Shown: positions 5,639 through 30,023, counted from the first letter of the stretch. The stretch: DNA of 32,000 bases from Kiritimatiellia bacterium (GCA_035353175.1 DAOPZC010000022.1:29730-61729), one strand, 5' to 3'. Numbers and translations are program-made. Notes: a model not told the origin generated them from the letters alone.

Positions 5639-6808
5639 ATGGCGAAGGAATTGGCGTTCGTTCTCATCAACCCGTATCCGATCCGCAAGTCGCGGACCGG
5701 CGGAATCATCGCACGCTATCTCGTGCGCACGGATCTCAAACTGGTCGGCGCGCGGATCATTGGCGCGTCTTCAGGGTTGGCCAACGAGTTTGCCGACTAT
5801 CTGAAAAACTACGATCCGGACGATCCCGAGAAATGCGAGCTGTTCTCCCAGTACGTGCGACGCGCTTACACCCCCGACGAGGATTCCGGACGGCCGCACC
5901 GCTCCATGCTCCTGCTCTTTGAAGGGGAGGATGCGGTCCGTAAGATTTTCGAGGTGACCGGTTCCATCCGGCAGCAGTGGTGCAGCGGCCAGAGCGTCCG
6001 GGACACGTATGGCGACCTTGTGCGCGAGCCTAAGACCAATCGGGTGGAATATTTTGAGCCCGCGGTGCTGGTCGGCGCTAGCAAGAAGGTCGTCGGCGAG
6101 ATTCTCGCGATCTGGCTCAAACACCTGCCGGAAGACGCCGGCATTGTGCGCGGCGCGATGGACGTGCCCGGCGGCGAGGATGTCCAGGAGACGCTGGTGA
6201 TGCTCAAGCCCGACAACTGGAGGCAGCCATCGCTGCGCGCAGGCAACATTATGGACCTGCTCTCCAACTCGGGGCTGCGCATCGTCGGCGTGAAAAAGTT
6301 TTCCATGTCCGTGGCCCAGGCAGAGGAGTTTTACGGCCCCGTGCGTGATAGCCTGAAGAAAGTTTTCATGCGCTTCGGCGCGGACCGCGCGGCGCAGGCG
6401 CTTTCGCGCGAGTTCGGATTTCCTGTCGACGCCGCCCCGCTCGATGATCTGTGCGACTATCTCGCGCCGCTTTTCGCCGGACGCGAGTTTGAGAACATCG
6501 TGGAGTTCATGACCGGACGACGCCCCTCGAACTGTCTGCCTGAGGAGCGCACCTTGCCCGGCACCGAAGAATGCCTTGCCATCGTCTACGAAGGCGTCGA
6601 TGCGGTGAACAAGATCCGCGATATCCTCGGCGCGACCGATCCGCTCAAGGCGCGTCCCGGTTCGATCCGGCGCGAGTTCGGCACCAACATCATGGTCAAC
6701 GCCGCGCATGCCTCGGACTCGGTCGAAAACGCCCGCCGCGAGATGCGTATTCTCGACGTCGTGCACGATCCGCATTTCGAAGACCTGATCAAGGCGTATT
6801 ACGCCTGA
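5639..6808 (+). CDS. tandem nucleoside-diphosphate-kinase-like protein (degenerate N-terminal NDK fold plus C-terminal NDK domain retaining the catalytic His)
   Basis: The C-terminal half reads 'TLVMLKPDN...GLRIVGVKKF...AEEFY...ILGATDPLKARPGSIRREFGTNIMVNAAHASDSVENARREM', which follows the NDK pattern including the NxxH[GA]SD site. The N-terminal half reads 'FVLINPYPIRKSRTGGIIARYL...LLLFEGEDAV...VRDTYGD' and lacks the His motif. Confidence 0.75.
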   Translation: MAKELAFVLINPYPIRKSRTGGIIARYLVRTDLKLVGARIIGASSGLANEFADYLKNYDPDDPEKCELFSQYVRRAYTPDEDSGRPHRSMLLLFEGEDAVRKIFEVTGSIRQQWCSGQSVRDTYGDLVREPKTNRVEYFEPAVLVGASKKVVGEILAIWLKHLPEDAGIVRGAMDVPGGEDVQETLVMLKPDNWRQPSLRAGNIMDLLSNSGLRIVGVKKFSMSVAQAEEFYGPVRDSLKKVFMRFGADRAAQALSREFGFPVDAAPLDDLCDYLAPLFAGREFENIVEFMTGRRPSNCLPEERTLPGTEECLAIVYEGVDAVNKIRDILGATDPLKARPGSIRREFGTNIMVNAAHASDSVENARREMRILDVVHDPHFEDLIKAYYA

Positions 6809-20995: not shown

Positions 20996-21104
20996 CAGCG
21001 GGTTCGTAGCCCCCCTGTACTTTTCTGATCTCCCCGTTTGCCTCAGCGGGTTCGTAGCCCCCGCTGTACGTGTGCCCCGGTACAGCAGGCGCTACGAGCC
21101 TGCT
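20996..21104. repeat. REP cluster: two forward REP copies plus one inverted copy (a REPIN-like doublet)
   Basis: A slightly decayed copy, CAGCGGGTTCGTAGCCCCCCTGTAC, lies at 20996-21020. A second copy, CAGCGGGTTCGTAGCCCCCGCTGTAC, lies at 21044-21069. An inverted partner, GGTACAGCAGGCGCTACGAGCCTGCT, lies at 21079-21104. Each unit is itself a hairpin (AGCGGG/CCCGCT and CAGCAGGC/GCCTGCTG). Confidence 0.8.
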
Positions 21105-21733
21105 ATTTCTTCGAATTCCGGCCTCAGCCACTCCACGCAGCGTGTCCACGGCCAGTCGGCCCAGTTCTTCGTCAAGCCGGCCTTGACCGGATTCTCGCAG
21201 ATGTACCGCGCGACGCCGATCACCTTGGCCTCGTCGCGGCACCAGTGGTCGAAGCCCTCGCGTGCCCAGAAGGCGCCCGTGCGTCCCAGTATCCGGTTGG
21301 CTTGCCGCGCCACGTAGCTCTTATACTGACCGAGGTCCGCCAACAACTCTCCGCTACGGCCCTCACCGCTCCGCATCAGCAGGTGCATGTGGTTCGAAAG
21401 CACCGTGACGGCGTACACCTGCCAGCCGCGCGGCTTCTCAAGCCATTCGAGATTCGCCAACACGATTTCAGGCACGCCGGGTTGCGTGAGCCAGTCGCGC
21501 CGGTTGTCCACGGCATGCAGGCAGCGTTCCACGTGCAGGAATTGCCGCCGCGCCAGTTCCGTCAACCGCTCCTCATTCGCATCGGCTTTCGCGAGGGCGG
21601 CCCGTTCCGACTCCAGGTCGGCGACGACAGCTTTCGGAATCGTGCCCGCGAGCCGCAGCGTCACAAAGTAGGCATGGTCTGCCACCAACCAGTGCGGCAG
21701 GTTGCCGCGTGTGAAGCGCAAGGTCTCGACCAT
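21092..21733 (-). CDS. REP-associated tyrosine transposase (RAYT; IS200/IS605 TnpA-like Y1 HUH enzyme)
   Basis: The protein contains 'NLPHWLVADHAYFVTLRL', the HUH motif 'LSNHMHLLM', and the catalytic-Tyr region 'ARYICENPVKAGL'. It is flanked on both sides by REP doublets. The start ATG at 21733 was chosen because the upstream ORF extension is REP sequence. Confidence 0.85.
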   Translation of the reverse strand: MVETLRFTRGNLPHWLVADHAYFVTLRLAGTIPKAVVADLESERAALAKADANEERLTELARRQFLHVERCLHAVDNRRDWLTQPGVPEIVLANLEWLEKPRGWQVYAVTVLSNHMHLLMRSGEGRSGELLADLGQYKSYVARQANRILGRTGAFWAREGFDHWCRDEAKVIGVARYICENPVKAGLTKNWADWPWTRCVEWLRPEFEEIAGS

Positions 21734-21755
21734 GGATACTCCTTGTGTGCTTGGG

Positions 21756-21855
21756 CAGCGGGCTTGTAACGCCCGCTGTACTGGCCCTGGTACAGCAGGC
21801 GCTACGAGCCTGCTGCTGTCCATTCGTTCTCCTCAGCGGGTTCATAGCCACCGCG
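21756..21855. repeat. REP cluster: REPIN-like doublet plus one more forward REP
   Basis: CAGCGGGCTTGTAACGCCCGCTGTAC lies at 21756-21781. The inverted GGTACAGCAGGCGCTACGAGCCTGCTG lies at 21789-21815. CAGCGGGTTCATAGCCACCGCG lies at 21834-21855. Confidence 0.8.
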
Positions 21856-21917: not shown

Positions 21918-24900
21918 TCATTGAGCGCTATCAACAACAAACGGATTGAACTTCAGGGCGCCGTGGCAGTGAGGGCAGGGGGCGAGGAGGCGTGGGTTCT
22001 CGTACGCGGAGTCGGGGAGCCAGAGGCCCTTGCGGATTTCCTGAGCGCCTTCCATTCCGATCTCCACAACCGGTTCTGGCGGCTCGAACAGCTTGCCGCA
22101 ATGGAGACAGCGGCAGGTGAGATGATCGTCCCACCGGTCGGGAGTGGCCACTGAGGTACCTTCGGCCTGTCTGCGGACTTCACCGAACATCCATAAGCGG
22201 GCAGGCGTGATGATCGACGGCCGGGAGGGCTGGAAGTTGACCGGCGTGAGAAAATGCATCTGTCCGTCGCCGGTGCGGCAGATTATGCGTTTGACCGACG
22301 GCGAGAACACAACGAATCGAATGTCAAACCCGGCATGGTAAACCGCCAGACAGGCACCGGTTTCCAGGTCCCAGACCCGCAGGGTCTGGTCGTTACTGCC
22401 CGAGACGGCACGCCGCCCGTCGGGGCTCACACTCACGCTCTCGACCCAGTCCCTGTGGCCTTCGAGGGTGCGCAGGCAGGCACCGGTTTCCAGGTCCCAG
22501 ACCCGCAGGGTCTTGTCATTACTGCCCGAGACGGCGCGCCGCCCGTCGGGGTTCACACTCACGCAATTGACTTGGTCCGCGTGGACTTCGAGGGTGCGCA
22601 GGCAGGCGTCGGTTTCCAGGTCCCAAACCCGCAGGGTCTTGTCAGTACTGCCCGAGACGGCACGCCGCCCGTCGGGGCTCACGCTCACGCACTTGACGTA
22701 GTCCGCGTGGCCTTCGAGCGTGCGCAGGCAGGCGCCGGTTTCCAGACTCCAGACCCGCAGGGTCTTGTCCCAACTGGCCGAGACGGCGCGCCGCCCGTCG
22801 GGGCTCACGCTCACGCTTACGTACCCGAACGAGCCCGCGTGGACTTCGAGGGTGCGCAGGCAGGCGCCGGTTTCCAGGTCCCAGACCCGCAGGGTATTGT
22901 CGAAACTGCTCGAGACGGCGAGCCGCCCGTCGGGACTCACGCTCAGTCTATTGACGAAGGATCTGTGGCCTTTGAGGGTACGCAGGCAGGTGCAGGTCTC
23001 CAGGTCCCAGACCCGCAGGGTCTTGTCGTAACCGCCCGAGACGGCGCGCCGCCCATCGGGGCTGACGCTCACGCAATTGACTTGGTCCGCGTGGACTTCG
23101 AGGGTGCGCAGGCAGGCGCCGGTTTCCAGGTCCCAGACCCGCAGGGTCTTGTCCCAACTGGCCGAGACGGCGCGCCGCCCGTCGGGGCTCACGCTCACGC
23201 TTACGTACCCGAACGAGCCCGCGTGGACTTCGAGGGTGCGCAGGCAGGCGCCGGTTTCCAGGTCCCAGACCCGCAGGGTCTTGTCATTACTGCCCGAGAC
23301 GGCGCGCCGCCCGTCGGGGTTCACACTCACGCAATTGACTTGGTCCGCGTTGCCTTCGAGGGTGCGCAGGCATTGGCCGGTTTCCAGGTCCCAGACCCGC
23401 AGGGTCCTGTCGGCACTGGCCGAGACGGCGCGCCGCCCGTCGGGGCTCACGCTCACGCTATTGACGAAGATTCTGTGGCCTTCGAGCGTGCGCAGGCAGG
23501 CGCCGGTTTCCAGGTCCCAGACCCGTAGGGTATTGTCGCGACGGGAAAGAGTTCCCGCTCCCGAGACGGCGCGCCGCCCGTCGGGGCTCACGCTCACGCT
23601 CCAGACCCATTCCGCGTGGCCTTCGAGGGTAGCTAGGCATTGGCCGGTTTCCAGGTCCCAGACCCGCAGGGTCTTGTCGAAACTGGCCGAGACCGCGCGC
23701 CGCCCGTCGGGGCTCACGCTCACGCTATTGACCGTGTGCGCGTGACCTTCGAGCGTGCGCAGACAGGCGCCGGTTTCCAGGTCCCAGACCCGCAGGGTCT
23801 TGTCGGCACTGCCCGAGACGGCGCGCCGCCCGTCGGGGCTCACGCTCACGCTATTGACCCAGTCCCTGTGGCCTTCGAGGGTGCGCAGGCAGGCGCCGGT
23901 TTCCAGGTCCCAGACCCGCAGGGTCTTGTCATTACTGCCCGAGACGGCGCGCCGCCCGTCGGGGTTCACACTCACGCAATTGACTTGGTCCGCGTTGCCT
24001 TCGAGGGTGCGCAGGCATTGCGGTCTCAAGGGGCGGGCGGGAGGCTGGGGCGTGCGCTTCAACCATGGCAACTTGCGTCCTGGAAGGAGGATTTCGGCTT
24101 GAACGGCCACCGGACCAGTATCAGCCCAGTTGAACGCCAAGGGTAGGACATCCTTGGGGAACTGCGAGAGAGGCGCCAAGTGTCCCGACACGAAGTTCGC
24201 GAAGTGCCGGAGGCGGGCGGCGCGTAGGGAGGATTCTTCAGGAATGGCGTGTTGGGCTTCGTCCCGCAGCGCGCCGGGCAGCGGCGGATAGGGCGGTTCG
24301 GGCCGCGTTTCGCCGCGTTCCTTGGCGAACCACCAGTCGCAGCGAACGAACGCGTAGTCCCGCAGCGCCTGGTTGAAGGCGAACATGGCCGCGTCGCGTT
24401 TGGCCAGCCGCTCGTTCTCCTCACGGAACTCGGGCAGTGCCGCCAGAGCGGCGTTGTAATCAGTCATCAGTTCATAGATCAAGCCGGATCGGGCTTTGGT
24501 CTCGACGCAGTCGAGATCGCATAGCACATCCACCAGCGGGTCCCATCGGTCGGCGCCAGGAGTCAACTCGGCGACCCGGTGCAGATGAAACGGCAGTTCG
24601 CTGGTCTTGCGGCTATTGGCGGGATCGGACCGCTCCGGGGCGCGGGCTGACTGACCGTCCTCTACCGATGGCGGCAGTAACCACGGTTGCCCGTCAAACC
24701 AGCCGGCCATGGTCTCGTGCAGGGGCAGGCGGGAGACGGCGTCCGGCAGGCAATAGGTCTGCACGGCTTCGCCGAAACTGCGATGGTAGAACCCGAACAG
24801 GGACGCGCCCTGGTTGCGGCGCTCGGTAAGGTAGAAGGCGATGTCGCCGTGCAGCCGCACCCAGATGGCGACCGGCAGGGCCTTGATGCGCTCGGCTTCG

Positions 24901-27056
24901 GGTTTGACCCGTTCGGTGGGCGAGCGTGCAATGACGTCGGCCATGACCACGGGATCGGCGCCAAGCACAGCGATCACTTCGTCCTCCGCCAGTCCGTGCC
25001 GGGCCGCGGCGAGATAGCCCAGCGCGCGCTTGACGATGACCTCGCCGTGCTCCCCGCCCCGGGACAGCCGTTGCAGGACGGTGGCGAGCAGGTCGGGCAG
25101 ACCGGACGGCAGCGGGTGGGGCTTGTGCCATGCCGGCCAGCGGGCGGCTTCCTCGGCCGCCACGCGCAGCCAGAGCGCGTTGCCCTCTACCGCGAAGGCG
25201 TCGAGGATAGGCCGGCGCTGGGCGTCGTGATCGAGCGTCCGCCCCGCCGCGTCCAGCCAGCGGTCGAGCAGCGCCGCGCCGTCAGCCGGCGCGAGCGGGT
25301 CGAGCCGGACGGTTTGCGCGCCGGGCGCGAGGCGGGCGAGGTTGCGGGAGATAGTGGCGCGTGGGTCGGCAAGTACAGCAGGACCTATGGGACTGCTGTT
25401 CTCGTGTGGCAGCGGGTTCATAGCCCCCGCTGTAAGTGCTCCGGCTTCATCGGGACCTTCAGAACCGCTGCTCTGATTATTAGCCAGCGGGCTCGTAGCG
25501 CCCGCTGTACGCGGTTCCGCCGCCGAAACGACGATGCGGACGTAAGGCGGGAGTTTCTGCGGTAGCCACGACAGAGAGGCGGCGAGGTTGGCATCGCGAA
25601 ACTGGTCGAGGGCGTCGAGGAAGAGCCGGATGGGACGTTCCGCCGTCGCCCGGCCCAGCGCCTCGTGAAAGGCATTGGTCAGAGGATTGATCTCGGTCGG
25701 GATTTCGCGTTCGTCGGGTTCCTTCTCCTTGGGTTCGCGGGACGGTCCGGAGTCAACAGGCGGGACGCCTGTTCCAATTTGTTCGACCTGGCGGGGGTAT
25801 AGTGCCCGAATCCGGGCGACCAGGTCGCGGAGCAGCTCGATCAGGTCGGACGATCCGGGAGTGACGCCGATGAAACGGGAGAGGACCTGGGGATGGTGAT
25901 CGGTTGTTTGCGTTTCGCCCTTCGCTTCGCCCCGGCATTCCGCAATCGCCTGGGCCATGAGGGCGGATTTGCCGGAGCCGGCCGGACCGACGATGGCGAG
26001 CGGCTGGTCCGGGCCGGAAGCGAGATATTCGCGAATCCGGCGCAGCGGTTCCGCGCGGCCGATGAAGCCGGCGCGGCGTTCTTCGGCGAAGTCGCGGTGC
26101 GCGGCTTCCTCCAATTCTTCCGGCGGGACTTCCTCGAGACCGGCGATCTGGGTCTCGAGGACTTGGCACAGCCGCCCGTAAACTTCCGTGGCGAACGCGG
26201 CGAGATCTGCATCGTTGAATGCGCCCTCGTCGCGCCACGGCACCTCGTAGGGATGGACGTTGGCAGGACCGAGGTGGTCATCCAGATCGGCGCACAGGAC
26301 ATCCAGCCGGCGGCGGGAGTCGGTATCCGGCGTGTCGTCGGGCATACAATCGGTAAACGCCGGATGCGGCGTTGACGGAGGATTGACGATCCGTCGGCGA
26401 AAAGCATGCACATGTTGGCGCGCATCCGTCCCGGGCAGGGCCAGCGCGCCGTGGATGATCTCCTGGTGCGTGGCGGAGAGGCCGATGGCCGTACAGCAGG
26501 CGTTGCTGGCTTGCCGATCTTCTCGCGCGGCGGTCCCGCAGGTCACGCTGCACTGCGCCAACGCGGCCAGCAGCGGCATTTCGACCTCTGCCTGCCAGAC
26601 TGCGAAATCCTCGAACCGCCCCGTTCGCGGTTGCAGCACATACTCCGCCGGCACGGCGTTATCATCCCGCCGATACCAAGCATCCAGAATCTCTGCGTTC
26701 TTTACGCTCTTTGTGGTTAATTCCCTCTCAAGCCCCTCGAATACCTCCGTCGGTATCGTCTCCGGCAGCGGTCGCCATCCATACCGGTCGCCCAGCAACA
26801 CGAGGAAATTCGGCTTGATCCGCCCCTCCTGACACCGCTTCAACTCGCGCAGACAGATCCGCATCGTGCGGTTGTCCTTGCCCGCCTCCTCGGGCACGCC
26901 CCATCGCAAGTCAATCGCCTGAAACCGCAGTCCCTTTGACAGGCAAAGCCGCTGCAGCTTAGGAAACACCTCTCGCTGCAACAGGTCACGCTCTGCCTTG
27001 AAGTCTGAGAAGGTCGAACTGACAAAAAGGCGGATAGTTCGATGAGCGGCGGACAT
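21918..27056 (-). CDS. STAND NTPase paralogue: DUF4062-like domain, NACHT module, helical region, 13 near-identical plus 1 degenerate WD40 repeats, C-terminal CxxC...CxxC zinc-ribbon-like tail
   Basis: The N-terminus 'IRLFVSSTFSDFKAERDLLQREVFPKL...FQAIDLRWGV...NFLVLLGDRYGWRPLP' is about 60% identical by eye to the 10847 gene. Walker A 'GPAGSGKS' lies at 25965-25988 and Walker B is 'IRLFLDALDQF'. The repeats follow 'LRTLEGHxxxVxSVSVSPDGRRAVSGSxDKTLRVWDLETGAC'. The tail reads 'CRCLHCGK...CPHCHG'. The start ATG at 27056 is preceded by a G-rich SD. Confidence 0.9.
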   Translation of the reverse strand: MSAAHRTIRLFVSSTFSDFKAERDLLQREVFPKLQRLCLSKGLRFQAIDLRWGVPEEAGKDNRTMRICLRELKRCQEGRIKPNFLVLLGDRYGWRPLPETIPTEVFEGLERELTTKSVKNAEILDAWYRRDDNAVPAEYVLQPRTGRFEDFAVWQAEVEMPLLAALAQCSVTCGTAAREDRQASNACCTAIGLSATHQEIIHGALALPGTDARQHVHAFRRRIVNPPSTPHPAFTDCMPDDTPDTDSRRRLDVLCADLDDHLGPANVHPYEVPWRDEGAFNDADLAAFATEVYGRLCQVLETQIAGLEEVPPEELEEAAHRDFAEERRAGFIGRAEPLRRIREYLASGPDQPLAIVGPAGSGKSALMAQAIAECRGEAKGETQTTDHHPQVLSRFIGVTPGSSDLIELLRDLVARIRALYPRQVEQIGTGVPPVDSGPSREPKEKEPDEREIPTEINPLTNAFHEALGRATAERPIRLFLDALDQFRDANLAASLSWLPQKLPPYVRIVVSAAEPRTAGATSPLANNQSSGSEGPDEAGALTAGAMNPLPHENSSPIGPAVLADPRATISRNLARLAPGAQTVRLDPLAPADGAALLDRWLDAAGRTLDHDAQRRPILDAFAVEGNALWLRVAAEEAARWPAWHKPHPLPSGLPDLLATVLQRLSRGGEHGEVIVKRALGYLAAARHGLAEDEVIAVLGADPVVMADVIARSPTERVKPEAERIKALPVAIWVRLHGDIAFYLTERRNQGASLFGFYHRSFGEAVQTYCLPDAVSRLPLHETMAGWFDGQPWLLPPSVEDGQSARAPERSDPANSRKTSELPFHLHRVAELTPGADRWDPLVDVLCDLDCVETKARSGLIYELMTDYNAALAALPEFREENERLAKRDAAMFAFNQALRDYAFVRCDWWFAKERGETRPEPPYPPLPGALRDEAQHAIPEESSLRAARLRHFANFVSGHLAPLSQFPKDVLPLAFNWADTGPVAVQAEILLPGRKLPWLKRTPQPPARPLRPQCLRTLEGNADQVNCVSVNPDGRRAVSGSNDKTLRVWDLETGACLRTLEGHRDWVNSVSVSPDGRRAVSGSADKTLRVWDLETGACLRTLEGHAHTVNSVSVSPDGRRAVSASFDKTLRVWDLETGQCLATLEGHAEWVWSVSVSPDGRRAVSGAGTLSRRDNTLRVWDLETGACLRTLEGHRIFVNSVSVSPDGRRAVSASADRTLRVWDLETGQCLRTLEGNADQVNCVSVNPDGRRAVSGSNDKTLRVWDLETGACLRTLEVHAGSFGYVSVSVSPDGRRAVSASWDKTLRVWDLETGACLRTLEVHADQVNCVSVSPDGRRAVSGGYDKTLRVWDLETCTCLRTLKGHRSFVNRLSVSPDGRLAVSSSFDNTLRVWDLETGACLRTLEVHAGSFGYVSVSVSPDGRRAVSASWDKTLRVWSLETGACLRTLEGHADYVKCVSVSPDGRRAVSGSTDKTLRVWDLETDACLRTLEVHADQVNCVSVNPDGRRAVSGSNDKTLRVWDLETGACLRTLEGHRDWVESVSVSPDGRRAVSGSNDQTLRVWDLETGACLAVYHAGFDIRFVVFSPSVKRIICRTGDGQMHFLTPVNFQPSRPSIITPARLWMFGEVRRQAEGTSVATPDRWDDHLTCRCLHCGKLFEPPEPVVEIGMEGAQEIRKGLWLPDSAYENPRLLAPCPHCHGALKFNPFVVDSAQ
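22350..24014 (-). repeat. tandem array of 13 coding repeats (126, 132 or 141 nt each) encoding WD40 blades, with long exact internal duplications
   Basis: The total length is 1665 nt (555 codons): 10 units of 42 aa, 2 of 44 aa and 1 of 47 aa. An exact repeat of ~144 nt occurs at 22751-22894 and 23135-23278. A further exact repeat of ~135 nt occurs at about 23237-23372 and 23881-24020. Confidence 0.9.
25410..25510. repeat. two direct REP copies embedded in-frame inside the NACHT-WD40 CDS
   Basis: CAGCGGGTTCATAGCCCCCGCTGTAA lies at 25410-25435 and CAGCGGGCTCGTAGCGCCCGCTGTAC at 25485-25510. They belong to the same family as the units flanking the RAYT gene. On the coding strand they translate as 'TAGAMNPL' and 'TAGATSPL'. 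Confidence 0.8.
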
Positions 27057-27057
27057 A

Positions 27058-27210
27058 CTACACCCCCCCTCGATTCTCGCGGTCGAACCAGACCTGGAAC
27101 CCGGCGGCGGCGTCCAGCCGGTTGGCGTTGAGATGCGTCCAAGCCTGGGCAAGTTCGTTTTGCGTGTTGGCGTCCATGCTGTTGCTCGTCAGGTGCGGGT
27201 TGATGAACAT
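27058..27210 (-). CDS. candidate 50-aa small ORF directly upstream of the NACHT-WD40 gene (not in the ORF track)
   Basis: My hand translation is 'MFINPHLTSNSMDANTQNELAQAWTHLNANRLDAAAGFQVWFDRENRGGV*'. About 43 of 50 codons end in G or C, matching the local coding bias. An AGGA lies 8 nt upstream of the ATG. The TAG stop is separated from the NACHT ATG by 1 nt. Confidence 0.4.
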   Translation of the reverse strand: MFINPHLTSNSMDANTQNELAQAWTHLNANRLDAAAGFQVWFDRENRGGV

Positions 27211-27292: not shown

Positions 27293-29113
27293 TCACAGGT
27301 TAAGGGAGGTTTTCTTGCAGATCTTTTGTTTGACCGCGTGGAGGAAGTCGGGGATCTTGCGTACGGTCTGGCGATCATACTCCTTGATATCGTCGGGGAG
27401 TTCGTTCCAGGGCACGATGCACGCACTTATTTTTCGCTTCTTGTCGCTGATTTCGCCATAGACCCACCCGTCGAGTAAGCGTTCCGCGTTCCACCGGTTG
27501 TGCTCCATCTCAGCCAGCAATTCGACATCGGGATCTTCAAGTTCATTGACGGCTCCCCGTGGATCTTTGATGTCTGCACGTTCGAGGCCGATCGCGCGCA
27601 ACTTCATGTCGATGTGGTCGGCCTGCTGGCGGTTCGAGTCCTTGAAATACTCGAACAAGTTCTTCCAATCCTGAACGGACGGTTCATCCTCAGGTTTTTT
27701 CTTGTCTCTCTTTAACGCTGCGATTTTGTTGATTTGATAACTCGTGTGGATGGCCTGAGCGAGGGTCTCGTTCAGCTTGTTCTCGAGCAACTCGTCGCTG
27801 CAACAGTCTTCAAGCATGCCGAAGGCGTGCAACGCAGAGTCCTTGCCGGCCGTGGCGGTCTGAAAGACGGAGGCAAAGCCGGTCTTGCTGGACATGCGGA
27901 CGAACATCGGCACCTGCAAGTGCTCGAGCTTGGCTTTCATGAGCAGGGCGACTTCAAGTCCCAGCGCGTCGCGGTCGAAGCAGGCCGCAACGCTGACGAG
28001 GGTTGACGTATCGGCGCACCAGGTCTCAAGCAGCTGCCGGGCTCGAAGCGACTCCATTTCGAGCTCGTGGAACTCGATCTCGCATGTTTTCTCGAAGTTC
28101 GGATAACGGAACAGCAAGGCCTGCTTGCGCCGCTCGGCGTGCTGGTCGATGACGGAAATCTTGAGCGGTTTCCCGTTGGCGAAGTGCCCGAGTTGAGCTG
28201 CGCGCAGCGCGACGGTCCTGCCCATGCGGCCGAAGCCGAGGATCACGAGGTGGGCCTGTCGGGGCTCGTTCTTCTTGATTCCCCCGCGATCCAGGGGCGT
28301 CAGATTCGGGTTCTGCAGAAGCTTCCGCGCGGCGGTGTCAAACAGGTCGAAGAAATGGATTTCGCAGCGCGGGTCATCTCTGAACGCCTGGGATGCCTGC
28401 AACGAGGCGCGTGTGTCGATATCGCCCAGGTGGATGAAACACTTGACGGGGTCCTGAAGGAGACTTCGACCGCCTCTCTTCAGAATGAGTGCGTGGGCTT
28501 CGTTGATGATGGCCATGTTCGTGCTGTCCTCTTCGGAAAGCGCGATGACGTGACTGGCCCGGTCAACACGTGCCTTGCTCAGGGTTGCGGGTTTCAGCAG
28601 GTCTCCCGTCACCACGGTGACTCCTTTTTCCCGGCAGGCCTCGGCGCCAGCGTCATTCGCGGAGGGGGAAACAACGACCACCCGTTGTCGCCGGGGCTTG
28701 GAATGGGCCGTTTCTTTGCAGGCTTGCGGGTTGCGGTAGCATTGGACCAGCTGGAGGGTTTTGGAGCCGAGGCCACAGATGACGACGTGCCGCGGCCAGG
28801 GGATTTGAAGGCGGATCTGCCGCATCTCATCGCGGAAGAACCGGAGAAAGGTCAACACCGCTGTCATTCCAAACAGCAGGAAGGCCATCCAGCGTGCGCA
28901 TTCCAAGGTTAAGGGCATGTCATCCTGGGACACCATGTGCATGAGAAGCAGCTGGATGCTGTGGTAAAAAGCGTTCAGCCATGCTCGGGCTCCTGGCGTG
29001 GAACCGTCAGCGAACCAATAGCCGAAGGTTCCTAAAACAATCGTGATCGGTGCCCCGATGAAAACCACCCACCACTGCCATCTCGCCTTCCCGTTTCCTG
29101 ATTGGCTACTCAT
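27293..29113 (-). CDS. membrane protein: MthK-like 2TM pore module with a degenerate selectivity filter, two Rossmann/RCK (TrkA-N-like) domains, and a C-terminal RyR domain
   Basis: TM1 is 'WWVVFIGAPITIVLGTFGYWF'. The pore-helix-like stretch 'AFYHSIQLLLMHMVSQDDMP' occupies the position of 'xxTxTTVGYGD'. TM2 is 'ARWMAFLLFGMTAVLTF'. It is followed immediately by 'RHVVICGLGSKTLQLV' (compare MthK 'RHVVICGW...') and a second Rossmann motif 'HLVILGFGRMGRTVA'. The C-terminal 'ELLAEMEHNRWNAERLLDGWVYGE...KISACIVPWNELPDDIKEYDRQTV' matches the RyR pattern. The ATG at 29113 overlaps the upstream gene's stop by 8 nt. Confidence 0.75.
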   Translation of the reverse strand: MSSQSGNGKARWQWWVVFIGAPITIVLGTFGYWFADGSTPGARAWLNAFYHSIQLLLMHMVSQDDMPLTLECARWMAFLLFGMTAVLTFLRFFRDEMRQIRLQIPWPRHVVICGLGSKTLQLVQCYRNPQACKETAHSKPRRQRVVVVSPSANDAGAEACREKGVTVVTGDLLKPATLSKARVDRASHVIALSEEDSTNMAIINEAHALILKRGGRSLLQDPVKCFIHLGDIDTRASLQASQAFRDDPRCEIHFFDLFDTAARKLLQNPNLTPLDRGGIKKNEPRQAHLVILGFGRMGRTVALRAAQLGHFANGKPLKISVIDQHAERRKQALLFRYPNFEKTCEIEFHELEMESLRARQLLETWCADTSTLVSVAACFDRDALGLEVALLMKAKLEHLQVPMFVRMSSKTGFASVFQTATAGKDSALHAFGMLEDCCSDELLENKLNETLAQAIHTSYQINKIAALKRDKKKPEDEPSVQDWKNLFEYFKDSNRQQADHIDMKLRAIGLERADIKDPRGAVNELEDPDVELLAEMEHNRWNAERLLDGWVYGEISDKKRKISACIVPWNELPDDIKEYDRQTVRKIPDFLHAVKQKICKKTSLNL

Positions 29114-30023
29114 AGTCGTGTTCCTCTGCTCGTTCGCTGTTGGAGCCGGACCGTAAGACGTCGGACGGCTGAATGAAGGTGACAAATTCCCGCAGCGAGG
29201 CCGGATCATCCGGCAGGATTATACCGCGGCCGTCATTCGGGCCTGCATTGGCAACCAGGGCGGCGAAACGCTTGGGGGCGAGTTCGTCACCATCTGTCGC
29301 AGCGACGCGTGCGCCCAGCGCCCAGGCCAGCGCCAACTCCTGCGCGGAGACGACACCGCCACCGAGGCACAGAAGAGTGACTGCAGAGGGGGGAATGCCG
29401 CTGACGAACAAGTCGTTCCACATTTGAAGCGGCTCCAGAAGCGAGAAGTCGCTGCCGACGGTGCGGACGATGTGGGGGAAGTCGAACGAGGCCTCGGCAT
29501 GTGCGGGAAGGTAGCCGACCAGCTCTACGTGCGCTTTGCCAGACGCATTTGCGTGCGCGGCGCAACGCGCGGCCAGTCCACAAACCCCGGCGCCGGTGCC
29601 GCCGGTGATGAGGTAGCCTTTATACGTAGAGAGCGCGTCTTGGAGGGGCGCTTCGTACGCGGCCAGCCGGGTGCCGCTTTGCGCATCGGTGCTTCCCGCG
29701 AGGATGAGGACTTTATTGCCAGTTCGGAACGTGAACCGGCGTTCCAACGGCGCCCGCTTAAAACGTGCTCCGCGTTCTGATGTCAGGGCTTGCCGCGCCT
29801 TGATGAAGAGGTCGGAGGCCTGATCGAGCACAGGGGCAAAGGGGTGATTTGCGCCGAGAGAAGCTTTGACGCGATCGAGCGCACGACGGATATCTGTACC
29901 GGGATGGCGCGAGTTCTTGACGGCGAGGCAAAGCTCTTCAAAAGCGGCAATCTCACGCAAAAAGCGGCCGTGCTTCTCGGAGTCATCCGGAAAGGGTTGA
30001 GCATCGGTACTGATCATCTCCAA
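29106..30023 (-). CDS. SLOG-superfamily-like (LOG/DprA/TIGR00725-type Rossmannoid) protein with an N-terminal helical extension
   Basis: The two glycine-rich motifs typical of SLOG domains are present: 'YLITGGTGAGVCGLAARCA' and 'LLCLGGGVVSAQELALAWALGARV'. The start is either the TTG at 30023 (GGAG 5 nt upstream) or the ATG at 30017. The gene overlaps the downstream gene by 8 nt. Confidence 0.5.
   Translation of the reverse strand: MEMISTDAQPFPDDSEKHGRFLREIAAFEELCLAVKNSRHPGTDIRRALDRVKASLGANHPFAPVLDQASDLFIKARQALTSERGARFKRAPLERRFTFRTGNKVLILAGSTDAQSGTRLAAYEAPLQDALSTYKGYLITGGTGAGVCGLAARCAAHANASGKAHVELVGYLPAHAEASFDFPHIVRTVGSDFSLLEPLQMWNDLFVSGIPPSAVTLLCLGGGVVSAQELALAWALGARVAATDGDELAPKRFAALVANAGPNDGRGIILPDDPASLREFVTFIQPSDVLRSGSNSERAEEHDYE

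Follow-up and report, generated by a model that had tools for sequence, protein, structure and literature searches.

A bacterial NLR-like (STAND) protein that combines a DUF4062 TIR-like domain with a homogenised WD40 array and a four-cysteine tail

We analysed a stretch of 32,000 nucleotides from a Kiritimatiellia bacterium (GCA_035353175.1, DAOPZC010000022.1:29730-61729; the whole stretch is referred to as the window). We observed that positions 21918-27056 of the minus strand form a single intact open reading frame of 1712 aa, the product of which presents the tripartite order of NLR-like proteins, namely effector, NTPase and C-terminal repeats. We interpret it as a bacterial NLR-like (STAND) receptor, built in the same way as human NWD1 and TEP1. 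Taken jointly with the mechanism and the mode of array evolution proposed below, we estimate the probability of this reading at approximately 0.6. A sequence-only reading of the same DNA had described a NACHT protein with a repetitive WD40 sensor and a cysteine tail. This outline was borne out, as we found a STAND/NACHT-type NTPase, then 13+1 blades and a tail with four cysteines. The features discussed in this study are listed below.

21918..27056, minus strand: complete coding sequence, 1712 aa; ATG at 27056, stop codon at 21918-21920; N-terminal start MSAAHRTIRLFVSS...
26382..27041, minus strand: DUF4062/TIR-like domain, aa 6-225 (Pfam PF13271 and TEP1 match)
26460..26462, minus strand: candidate catalytic glutamate E199 in the motif S-A-T-H-Q-E-I (invariant in homologues, TEP1-like motif)
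25545..26066, minus strand: STAND P-loop NTPase core, aa 331-504 (Pfam AAA_16 and Walker motifs)
25965-25988, minus strand: Walker A motif GPAGSGKS, aa 357-364
25602-25628, minus strand: RLFLDALDQ, which contains the Walker B motif LFLDALDQ, aa 478-485
24018..25544, minus strand: helical, winged-helix and linker region, aa 505-1013 (weak HTH_NWD1 match and homologue conservation)
22353..24017, minus strand: 13 WD40 repeats, R1-R13, aa 1014-1568 (TRF period 126, 13.0 copies, score 2136)
23201..23232, minus strand: hypervariable patch of R7, the sole difference from a near-identical metagenome contig over 20 kb
22182..22352, minus strand: degenerate 14th blade, aa 1569-1625 (AF2 strands at fragment residues 570-604 and 620-624)
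21921..22181, minus strand: C-terminal tail, aa 1626-1712, 87 aa (homologue alignment and AF2)
10847..15310, plus strand: paralogue 1, with DUF4062, NACHT, HTH_NWD1 and a diverged propeller-like C-terminus, without the tail (Pfam)

The choice of the start codon fits the homologues, all of which have 5-7 residues ahead of RTIRLF. The protein P0002, encoded on a JGI metagenome contig, was the same protein except in repeat R7. Searching Pfam with the protein identified DUF4062, AAA_16 and 13 WD40 repeats; these matches, together with the repeat boundaries, placed DUF4062 at aa 6-225, the NTPase at aa 331-504 and the WD40 region at aa 1014-1625. PADLOC (2023 models of bNACHT, Avs and others) assigned no known defence family to the protein or its neighbours. 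It returned a HEAT-ARM_XIII match, which was driven by the WD40 repeats and was uninformative, and one marginal P-loop match. Nor did NCBIfam yield an informative match for the protein, its tail or the neighbouring genes.

The N-terminal domain was absent from the sequence-only reading, and we regard it as the key to function. It matched DUF4062 (PF13271) with 36.6 bits against a cut-off of 24.7, and the TIR-like domain of human TEP1 (PDB 11gz) with E 3.8e-18 for the single sequence and 2e-20 for the profile. DUF4062 was demonstrated experimentally to be a TIR-like NADase, both in bacterial Swarozyc and in TEP1 (bioRxiv 10.64898/2026.05.01.722283), and the catalytic glutamates of the family are E1008 in TEP1 and E97 in KpSwz. 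In the window protein E199 was invariant in 120 of 120 homologues, and its surroundings, S-x-T-x-x-E-[IV] and then ...F-R, resemble SVTEME(1008)V...IYFRD of TEP1. Judging by this motif, E199 may be the equivalent of E1008; alignments to TEP1 end before the residue or misplace it owing to an insertion of approximately 95 aa, which is conserved and lies inside the DUF4062 domain (aa ~100-193). The profile alignment ended at residue 97, short of the catalytic Glu. One phmmer alignment placed E122 opposite E1008, and we dropped this candidate because E122 is not conserved. TEP1 R954 and R976 aligned with R63 and R91, and the position of R908, mutation of which lowers the activity of TEP1, is occupied by Ser17. 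Two of the three active-site Arg equivalents and the catalytic-type Glu are therefore conserved.

Human TEP1, NWD1 and NWD2 share the domain order of the window protein, and TEP1 shares the N-terminal match and the Glu motif described above. The window protein differs from them in the absence of TROVE and vWA domains and in the presence of homogenised blades, the TIR-like insertion, the four-cysteine tail and Ser at the R908 position. Since its DUF4062 domain is homologous to the NADase domain of TEP1, the likely function of the protein is ligand-triggered oligomerisation that would switch on NAD+ hydrolysis. The same logic of activation, running from WD40 through NACHT to TIR, has already been proposed for TEP1 (bioRxiv 10.64898/2026.05.01.722283). 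Swarozyc and Evangelion, two bacterial anti-phage systems, likewise use a DUF4062 TIR-like NADase as effector, which a sensing region switches on; NAD+ depletion and abortive infection were shown for them by experiment. Those proteins are short and consist of DUF4062 and a small auxiliary domain, with neither NTPase nor WD40, whereas the window protein represents the 'TEP1-like' branch, which the Swarozyc and Evangelion papers touch on in passing.

The NTPase core matched AAA_16 with 53.7 bits (cut-off 32.6). It did not pass Pfam NACHT (PF05729; 15.1 bits, cut-off 26.7) or NPHP3_N (23.8 bits, cut-off 24.8). Many homologues carry PF05729, and paralogue 1 passes it at 34.4 bits. The Walker B motif fits the hhhhD[AG][LF]D[EQ] type of NACHT-clade STAND NTPases. 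Membership of the NACHT clade is thus supported by AAA_16, by the Walker motifs and by the homologues that pass PF05729. In the region that follows, the match to HTH_NWD1 was weak (13 bits), and it was clear in paralogue 1 (46.4 bits). This region contains a low-complexity insert and a segment ...LCDLDCVETKA...DYNAAL..., the latter conserved in homologues. Many tail-bearing proteins of ~900 aa start within this segment.

Ten of the 13 WD40 repeats are 42 aa long, R4 has 47 aa and R7 and R10 have 44 aa each. After R13 we found a divergent 14th blade, CLAVYHAGFDIRFVVFSPSVKRIICRTGDGQMHFL, with a conserved strand ...IITPARLWMFG that comes after strand C of the last blade and is kept in the tail-family alignments. 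Thirteen blades and a degenerate closing one had been read from the sequence before, and this count stood; the description of the 13 as 'nearly identical' was slightly generous, as mean pairwise identity of the repeats was 80% in protein. At the DNA level it was 86-87% overall, with 86% for the 42 codons that the repeats share, and rose to 93% when the 33 scaffold codons were compared. R1 and R6 were 100% identical in DNA, R12 was 98% identical to both of them, and R7 was 98% identical to R10. TRF also reported a period of 384 bp; a three-blade segmental duplication does not account for it, since R7 and R10 are alike and R8/R11 and R9/R12 are not.

The AF2 model of the array (pLDDT 84.6, pTM 0.48) had a low-confidence break at the R7/R8 junction. 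Foldseek found as the top match 2YMU, the cyanobacterial WRAP protein with 14 blades (E 3.4e-58, 589 aligned columns, 39% identity), and then tandem propellers and Apaf-1. The earlier suggestion that the blades are enough for two 7-bladed propellers agrees with the position of the break and with the two-propeller top match, and the model supports an arrangement of the 14 blades as two such propellers. Apaf-1 (TMq 0.57 over 642 columns) likewise has a STAND NTPase followed by two WD40 propellers, which sense a protein ligand in Apaf-1 and may do so here, and its logic of activation is the one proposed for TEP1. In contrast to the window protein, it has a CARD effector and an NTPase of the NB-ARC and not the NACHT type; its blades number 7+8 and have diverged, and it lacks the tail.

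Highly repetitive WD40 sensors with a likely immune role have been described before from bacterial STAND proteins, so the array is not unprecedented; the sequence-only reading had made no mention of this. The closest example is WRAP (Npun_R6612 of Nostoc punctiforme, 2YMU), in which 14 blades of very high mutual identity lie C-terminal to a STAND NTPase and form two 7-bladed propellers. A WRAP-type array is recognised by a median blade identity above 60% in a STAND context (PMC9218822), and the mean here was 80%. The near absence of synonymous differences, by which very recent amplification is recognised in WRAP, was not seen, as pS between repeats was about 0.13-0.16. Across the blades of WRAP there are just 10 point differences, and synonymous changes are absent; in the window protein the blades share 80% identity, pS is about 0.15 and the differences are focused on five top-face codons. 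The window protein further has an effector domain (DUF4062) and the four-cysteine tail, and its phylum is Lentisphaerota-like, not cyanobacterial.

We aligned the repeats by codon for entropy and dN/dS, as the sequence-only reading had proposed, and found that the differences are concentrated, not random along the repeat. Nine of the 42 columns held 68% of the pairwise amino-acid differences, and 79% of column entropy fell in the D-A loop, the start of strand A and the B-C turn. The hypervariable codons are columns 10, 11, 13, 29 and 31 (ungapped numbering, beginning at CLRTLEG). Three variable sites had been pointed out beforehand, namely the stretch that follows LEGH, the x in VxSV and the position preceding D[KRNQ]TLRVW. 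All three were recovered, with the correction that the second lies immediately after the V and not two residues after it. The K/N/R/Q residue after D in D[KRNQ]TLRVW was variable as well. The loop, strand start and turn that carry most of the entropy make up the top face in established WD40 geometry, and it is at top-face positions that WD40 repeats in general vary most. The variable sites are thus predicted to line the top, ligand-binding face, in line with the earlier proposal; this placement was read off predicted secondary structure and textbook WD40 geometry rather than computed coordinates.

The fungal HET-E and HET-D proteins have positively selected codons 7, 9, 25 and 27, which flank conserved codons 8 and 26 (Paoletti et al. 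2007). By spacing, these four correspond to our columns 11, 13, 29 and 31, which hold entropy ranks 2, 4, 1 and 5 of 42; the chance of all four falling within the top five is about 4.5e-5. The HET-E/NWD-like pattern noted earlier therefore holds position for position at four codons, and shuffling of such repeats may generate new specificities. Like HET-E, HET-D and HNWD of Podospora anserina, the window protein has WD repeats of 42 aa behind a NACHT-type NTPase; these repeats are ~80-90% identical, undergo concerted evolution within the array and have the same four hypervariable codons flanking conserved V and D. Its effector is DUF4062 and not HET, it is bacterial and not fungal, and it carries the four-cysteine tail; the number of repeats varies widely in the fungal proteins and appears to stay at 13+1 in the two closest orthologues of full length, and an allorecognition phenotype is known on the fungal side only. 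The protein resembles HET-E/HNWD in its working, and is outside that family for want of the HET domain.

pN was 0.51 at the four codons taken from HET-E/D, and pS was 0.13 for the remaining 38. The Nei-Gojobori ratio was 1.42 on nine columns that were picked after the fact. Both are simple pairwise counts on recombining, non-independent repeats, and may point to an excess of non-synonymous change at the variable codons. The same pattern could also come from a recently amplified WRAP-type propeller whose blades are drifting apart, so that the top-face differences would reflect relaxed constraint and not selection for diversity or shuffling. Highly repetitive propellers do arise continually, with 10,474 of them catalogued (PMC9218822), and synonymous divergence between the blades is above zero. 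Of the 14 arrays of the family that we examined, nearly all have columns 10, 11, 13, 29 and 31 at the top by entropy, and these columns are also the most variable in the less homogenised array of Oligosphaera ethanolica, as would be expected if they were the least constrained. However, non-synonymous divergence at the four codons chosen a priori is ~3.8 times the synonymous divergence of the remaining repeat, which exceeds the expectation of neutral drift, and hypervariable codons with up to 8 alleles, 2-3 nucleotides apart, stand beside invariant neighbours. The O. ethanolica orthologue, moreover, has 13+1 blades too, which indicates that the window array is an old array that has been homogenised and not a new amplification. 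We consider drift after recent amplification unlikely, and favour selection for diversity at the top face as the more probable reading.

Homogenisation was also seen in comparison with this nearest species. DNA identity was 87% within the array and 80% to the repeats of the O. ethanolica orthologue; each repeat was closest to one in its own array, and no positional orthology was observed between the two. Exact copies of 147-148 bp were shared by the non-adjacent blades R1/R6 and R7/R10. A scan of genomes for further alleles gave the 88% orthologue of O. ethanolica and more distant relatives only, and a scan of metagenomes gave only relatives at 64-70% identity. The O. ethanolica orthologue lies among DUF4062-NACHT-TPR and TIR-propeller genes and adjoins a transposase, in a context that is not syntenic with the window.

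Over 20,084 bp shared with the near-identical metagenome contig, all 13 differing alignment columns fell within the R7 patch. The window carries there the version of R10, and the other version was found in two independent assemblies only. This alternative contains bases (CTT, TAC-GTC-AAT) present in no other repeat, and these unique bases, together with the two independent assemblies, lead us to accept it as real. A 32-bp patch that is the sole difference across 20 kb might point to movement of cassettes between blades. P0001, a protein with 8 repeats that lacks R2-R6, comes from a near-identical assembly, a MEGAHIT k141 contig. We do not regard it as a true allele: the missing 645 bp are exactly the spacing of two copies of a 148-bp exact repeat, longer than k, and collapse at this repeat is a sufficient explanation. 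L008 and L009 differ by a block of 62 aa, and L009 has an irregular junction with a broken blade.

All three differences (the patch in R7, the absence of R2-R6 from P0001 and the block of 62 aa) may be artefacts of short-read assembly, in which case they would be no evidence of repeat shuffling in nature; we see the odds of this as even. With 8+1 blades, P0001 would suit neither a single 7-bladed propeller nor a pair of them, the R7 patch of the window is the same as that of R10 and lies in an exact repeat of 147 bp, and the junction in L009 is irregular as mentioned above. Against this, the alternative R7 allele is real by the evidence given, the R7 version of the window could be a genuine conversion from R10, and the homogenisation relative to O. 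ethanolica is independent of the assemblies in question.

The C-terminal tail, ...TCRCLHCGK...(40 aa)...CPHCHG..., with final residues ...PRLLAPCPHCHGALKFNPFVVD, contains two CxxC knuckles, C1650/C1653 and C1694/C1697, with a helix between them. All four cysteines were invariant in 19 full-length homologues. In the AF2 model (pLDDT 77.9, core 85-94) both CxxC lie at strand ends. The tail had been called a zinc ribbon beforehand; the two invariant knuckles agree with this, but no fold or profile match was found. Pfam gave sub-threshold zinc-ribbon matches only (E >= 0.07) and NCBIfam none, and Foldseek with the tail-only model gave a best PDB match at E 1.3 and a best viral (BFVD) match at E 0.11. 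Matches to C2H2 zinc fingers (PDB profile, E 5e-5 to 1e-3) were set aside as unspecific, covering 20-30 residues around one CxxC. In most C2H2 matches of the tail no stretch passed by itself. From its conserved cysteines the tail is probably zinc-binding. The literature was also searched for the KFNPF motif, with no relevant result.

A profile of the tail matched 928 clusters among 1.84 billion representatives. The tail was nearly always C-terminal to WD40 arrays, and the heads of these proteins were either DUF4062 or canonical TIR (TIR_2). Since the module of WD40 and tail occurs behind TIR_2 in other proteins, the two NADase-type heads appear to be interchangeable on the same sensor. Short 'stand-alone' tail ORFs (49-90 aa) were set aside, as most of them resemble fragments of disrupted or collapsed genes. 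The tail had been said to be missing from paralogue 1, and accordingly neither the tail profile nor the repeat profile matched that gene (window 10847-15310).

We propose the following mechanism. The N-terminal DUF4062 TIR-like NADase would be the effector, the NACHT-type P-loop NTPase would serve as the switch and oligomerisation module, and two 7-bladed WD40 propellers, completed by the four-cysteine tail, would form the sensor. The ligand, for which a protein from a phage or some other invader is the most plausible candidate, would bind the hypervariable top face of the propellers, release autoinhibition and permit nucleotide-dependent oligomerisation. This would bring the DUF4062 domains together and switch on NAD+ hydrolysis, and the loss of NAD+ would lead to growth arrest or abortive infection. 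Recombination or gene conversion within the array would keep the blades alike while five top-face codons per blade stay different, and the outcome would be a modular binding surface open to re-assortment.

The protein could instead be a non-immune signalling or scaffolding STAND protein, similar to NWD1 or NPHP3, with a DUF4062 domain that is silent or acts on another substrate and propellers that bind an endogenous partner. Full-length human NWD1, NWD2 and NPHP3 share the architecture and were inactive as NADases in vitro, the R908 equivalent here is Ser, a second, non-repetitive paralogue lies nearby, and neither PADLOC matches nor recognised defence genes adjoining in the window were found. 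On the other hand, the protein keeps a catalytic-type Glu together with equivalents of two of the three active-site Arg residues, and hypervariable residues on a binding face together with homogenisation within the array are hallmarks of conflict genes. Relatives with canonical TIR heads on the same sensor, and the surroundings of the O. ethanolica orthologue described above, also speak against such a role. We therefore regard it as improbable, to about the same degree as drift, and favour the immune NADase receptor.

A bolder proposal is that the array re-assorts in natural populations by short gene-conversion tracts and that the tail is a zinc-binding domain which closes or gates the second propeller. 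We hold this combination to be tentative and rather doubtful. If it were true, the bacterium would possess a HET-E-like, fast-diversifying recognition repertoire coupled to a TIR-like NADase, and the tail would represent a zinc-binding domain that has not been described before and is specific to the WD40 sensors of bacterial NLRs.

In summary, it was only in 2026 that DUF4062 was shown to be a TIR-like NADase, both for bacterial defence and for TEP1, a human vault protein. Full DUF4062-NACHT-WD40 proteins of bacteria with a diversifying face may serve as tractable models for the WD40 trigger of the TEP1/NWD type. The unannotated four-cysteine tail, with about 900-930 protein clusters, adds a small but concrete item to the known parts of bacterial NLRs. 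The fungal rule of 'homogenised repeats plus hypervariable contact residues' would be extended by this protein to a bacterial NADase receptor.

The gene at window 21918-27056 (-) is a single unbroken ORF. Its architecture, its homology and its pattern of variation were observed directly, and its best-supported reading is an NLR-like receptor with a propeller sensor and a TIR-like NADase. The in-frame ATG at 27056 gives a protein of 1712 aa with the N-terminus MSAAHRTIRLFVSS..., and this start fits all close homologues, in which 5-7 residues stand ahead of RTIRLF. The N-terminal domain was identified as DUF4062 (Pfam, 36.6 bits, cut-off 24.7). It is followed by a P-loop NTPase (AAA_16, 53.7 bits; Walker A GPAGSGKS, Walker B LFLDALDQ) and by a helical, winged-helix and linker region. 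The Pfam NACHT model was sub-threshold on this protein; it passed on paralogue 1, the second NLR-like gene of the window, and on many homologues.

Tandem Repeats Finder detected a period of 126 bp in 13.0 copies at 22347-24017. Splitting the protein at CL[RA]T gave the following array:

aa 1014-1568, window 22353-24017 (-): 13 WD40 repeats, R1-R13

Ten of the 13 repeats are 42 aa long, R4 has 47 aa, and R7 and R10 have 44 aa. R13 is succeeded by a 14th, divergent unit and then by a C-terminal extension. Thus the 13 similar blades and degenerate 14th blade described in the sequence-only reading were recovered. Mean pairwise identity of the repeats was 80% for protein and, for DNA, 86% over the 42 shared codons and 93% over 33 scaffold codons. 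R1 and R6 are identical in DNA, R12 is 98% identical to both, and R7 is 98% identical to R10.

We aligned the repeats and computed entropy for the 42 ungapped columns, counted from CLRTLEG. The spread of differences was far from even, as 68% of pairwise amino-acid differences were confined to 9 of the 42 columns, in agreement with the earlier claim of a few variable positions. The list of variable places in that claim was right, except that the residue after V was described off by one. The highest entropy was observed, in order, in columns 29, 11, 10, 13 and 31. Codons of these columns have up to 8 alleles, 2 or 3 nucleotides apart, and the codons adjoining the hypervariable ones are invariant, synonymous sites included.

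The likeness to fungal HET-E, also proposed earlier, extends to single positions. Paoletti et al. 2007 (PMC1805685) reported strong positive selection on four codons of the HET-E/D repeat: 7 and 9, which flank conserved codon 8, and 25 and 27, which flank conserved codon 26. In the window repeat, 18 residues separate the conserved V from the conserved D, the same distance as between codons 8 and 26, and therefore the fungal codons map to columns 11, 13, 29 and 31. These columns hold entropy ranks 2, 4, 1 and 5 of 42 (P ~4.5e-5 by chance for four pre-specified columns all within the top five), so the hypervariable columns match the fungal selected codons position for position. Non-synonymous divergence at the four codons was 0.51 per site, while synonymous divergence in the other 38 codons was 0.13. 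Nei-Gojobori dN/dS was 1.42 for the nine columns, picked post hoc, and 0.37 for the remaining ones; all these figures are crude pairwise counts from recombining, non-independent repeats. The apparent excess of non-synonymous change points either to diversifying selection or to old diversity retained during homogenisation of the scaffold, neither of which is proven.

We modelled aa 1000-1712 with AlphaFold2 from an alignment of 19 sequences (mean pLDDT 84.6). The model divided the repeat into the following elements:

strand D: CLRTL
D-A loop: EGHxxx
strand A: VNCVSV
A-B loop: xPDGR
strand B: RAVSGS
B-C turn: xDK
strand C: TLRVWD
C-D loop: LETGA

By this assignment the variable columns fall in three places: where the D-A loop ends, on the opening residues of strand A, and on the B-C turn. 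The top face of a WD40 propeller is made up of these three elements, and its bottom face of the A-B and C-D loops. The A-B and C-D loops of the array are nearly invariant. We therefore read the hypervariable columns as the predicted top face, as had been proposed, on the basis of predicted secondary structure and textbook WD40 geometry. The top Foldseek match was 2YMU (E 3.4e-58, 589 columns, 39% identity), the 'highly repetitive propeller' of Nostoc Npun_R6612, and the matches ranked after it were tandem double propellers and Apaf-1. The sole low-confidence stretch within the modelled array, aa 1313-1320, is the exact R7/R8 junction. Together, these matches and the break make two 7-bladed propellers, the arrangement suggested earlier, the best-supported prediction.

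The nearest genome is that of Oligosphaera ethanolica DSM 24202, with 88% protein identity over the N-terminal part. Its orthologue likewise carries 13+1 repeats, which are less alike internally (67% protein, 76.5% DNA), and its tail is shorter. Window repeats were 87% identical to one another and 80% to the O. ethanolica repeats; repeats at the same position were no closer than others (80.2%), and the nearest relative of each of the 13 was another window repeat. Therefore the blade number is old, and the array was homogenised in the lineage of the window. Recent exchange between non-adjacent blades is evident from two exactly copied stretches, one of 148 bp in the R1/R6 region and one of 147 bp in the R7/R10 region.

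We found the same locus on two metagenome contigs, L005 and L006. Over 20,084 bp, L005 (JGI 3300010352) shares 99.94% identity with the window; all 13 differing alignment columns fall at window 23201-23232, the patch of R7 that covers the D-A loop and strand A. The window's version of the patch is identical to R10; L005 and L006 have a unique sequence there, absent from the other blades, so this allele is real. L006 (ENA, MEGAHIT k141) lacks exactly 645 bp, corresponding to R2-R6. The two copies of the 148-bp exact repeat stand 645 bp apart, and the repeat is longer than k, so assembly collapse is the simplest explanation. The sole difference between L008 and L009, metagenome contigs of ~65% identical relatives from two samples, is a 62-aa block inside the WD40 array, and L009 has an irregular broken-blade junction (RVTFS-GH-CLRILEGH); this reflects either array instability or misassembly. 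In general, the differences between assemblies are compatible with repeat instability and inseparable from assembly error.

With the N-terminal 1013 aa as query we obtained >2,200 homologues. The best 120 of these had a modal 13-14 detectable repeats; many arrays were 60-80% identical internally, and ~30 proteins had the tail. The five most variable columns of the window array also lead in nearly all of the 14 family arrays examined. Thus the gene is a typical, though strongly homogenised, member of a large family.

The tail (...TCRCLHCGK...CPHCHG...) was present and its profile had no match in paralogue 1 (10847-15310), as noted from the sequence. A conserved strand, IITPARLWMF, comes directly after strand C of blade 14 and probably completes the last blade. 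The 87-aa tail module then consists of a CxxC, a 15-residue helix, a short helix and a second CxxC, and ends in PRLL..CP.C..LKFNPF.VD; its four cysteines do not vary across 19 full-length homologues. The tail matched no model of Pfam or NCBIfam, and neither PDB nor BFVD gave a significant neighbour for a tail-only structure model (pLDDT 77.9; core 85-94). Run against 1.84 billion representatives, the tail profile matched 928 clusters at E <= 1e-3, of which 715 reached <= 1e-10, nearly always at the extreme C-terminus behind WD40 repeats. Two kinds of head occur in these proteins, DUF4062 and canonical TIR_2, the latter in some cases with a zinc ribbon, and an NPHP3_N/AAA_16 NTPase comes next; many tail-bearing proteins of ~900 aa begin within the helical linker. 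As the tail is kept behind WD40 repeats with differing heads, it belongs to the sensor module and is independent of the effector. Our best guess is a zinc-stabilised cap closing or gating the second propeller. Several ORFs of 49-113 aa consist of only the last ~45 tail residues, and in P0219 a DUF4062 N-terminus is fused directly to these residues. The short ORFs look like collapsed assemblies or disrupted genes, and a few, on contigs >100 kb, could be real small proteins.

The DUF4062 domain matched the TIR-like domain of human TEP1 (crystal-structure sequence 11gz) with E 3.8e-18, and 2e-20 as a profile. Work from 2026 established DUF4062 as a TIR-like NADase, both in bacterial Swarozyc and in TEP1, with catalytic residues E97 and E1008, respectively (bioRxiv 10.64898/2026.05.01.722283). 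The Evangelion DUF4062 defence family is the subject of a second preprint, in which TEP1-like proteins of bacteria that contain NACHT and WD40 are also mentioned. The numbering of 11gz is valid, as its residues 908, 954, 976 and 1008 are R, R, R and E. TEP1 R954 and R976 aligned to R63 and R91, and R908 to Ser17; the alignments stop ahead of the catalytic Glu because of a conserved ~95-aa insertion. The motif S-A-T-H-Q-E199-I...HAFRR resembles TEP1 S-V-T-E-M-E1008-V...IYFRD, and E199 is invariant among 120 homologues. We infer that E199 is the catalytic candidate.

The neighbourhood of the gene contains the following features:

27293-29209 (-): TrkA_N and RyR protein, 638 aa, immediately upstream
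21092-21823 (-): REP-associated tyrosine transposase (RAYT)-like ORF, 243 aa, directly downstream
10847-16905 (+): paralogue 1 and TPR protein
7382-10138 (-): AAA protein with two RyR stretches, 918 aa

RyR-domain proteins thus stand on both sides of the NLR-like gene pair, and PADLOC assigned no defence family to the gene's window neighbours, both RyR proteins included. The RAYT-like ORF scored 78.3 bits with NF047646, just below the 80-bit cut-off. Paralogue 1 (DUF4062, NACHT, HTH_NWD1 and a diverged propeller-like C-terminus) is convergent with the gene and ~6.6 kb away. It is followed by the TPR gene; on near-identical L005 the two calls overlap by 4 bp, which suggests an operon. A 50-aa ORF called on L005 (window 27058-27210, -) stops 2 nt ahead of the gene's ATG; it is possibly spurious, as it lies in another frame and had no Pfam match. 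At 5639-6808 (+) there is a 389-aa protein with a nucleoside diphosphate kinase domain in two stretches (best residues 312-371), far longer than a standard NDK. The O. ethanolica orthologue is flanked by DUF4062-NACHT-TPR (NPHP3-like) and TIR_2-beta-propeller proteins, beside a Mu-type transposase/integrase; this NLR-like gene cluster (L001, 1350-19032) is non-syntenic with the window.

Highly repetitive WD40 propellers of bacterial STAND proteins (WRAP) have been published (PMC9218822), and it has been remarked in print that repeats of bacterial NLRs have 80-90% internal identity and may diversify in the fungal manner (bioRxiv 10.1101/2020.01.06.895854). To this we make modest additions: the position-for-position match to fungal selected codons in a DUF4062-headed bacterial receptor, the sole inter-assembly difference pinned to one hypervariable patch, and a Cys4 tail family that was without annotation. 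In summary, the propellers would bind and sense a ligand through a diversifying top face, and oligomerisation of the receptor would switch on a catalytically active TIR-like NADase, which may serve an immune role.
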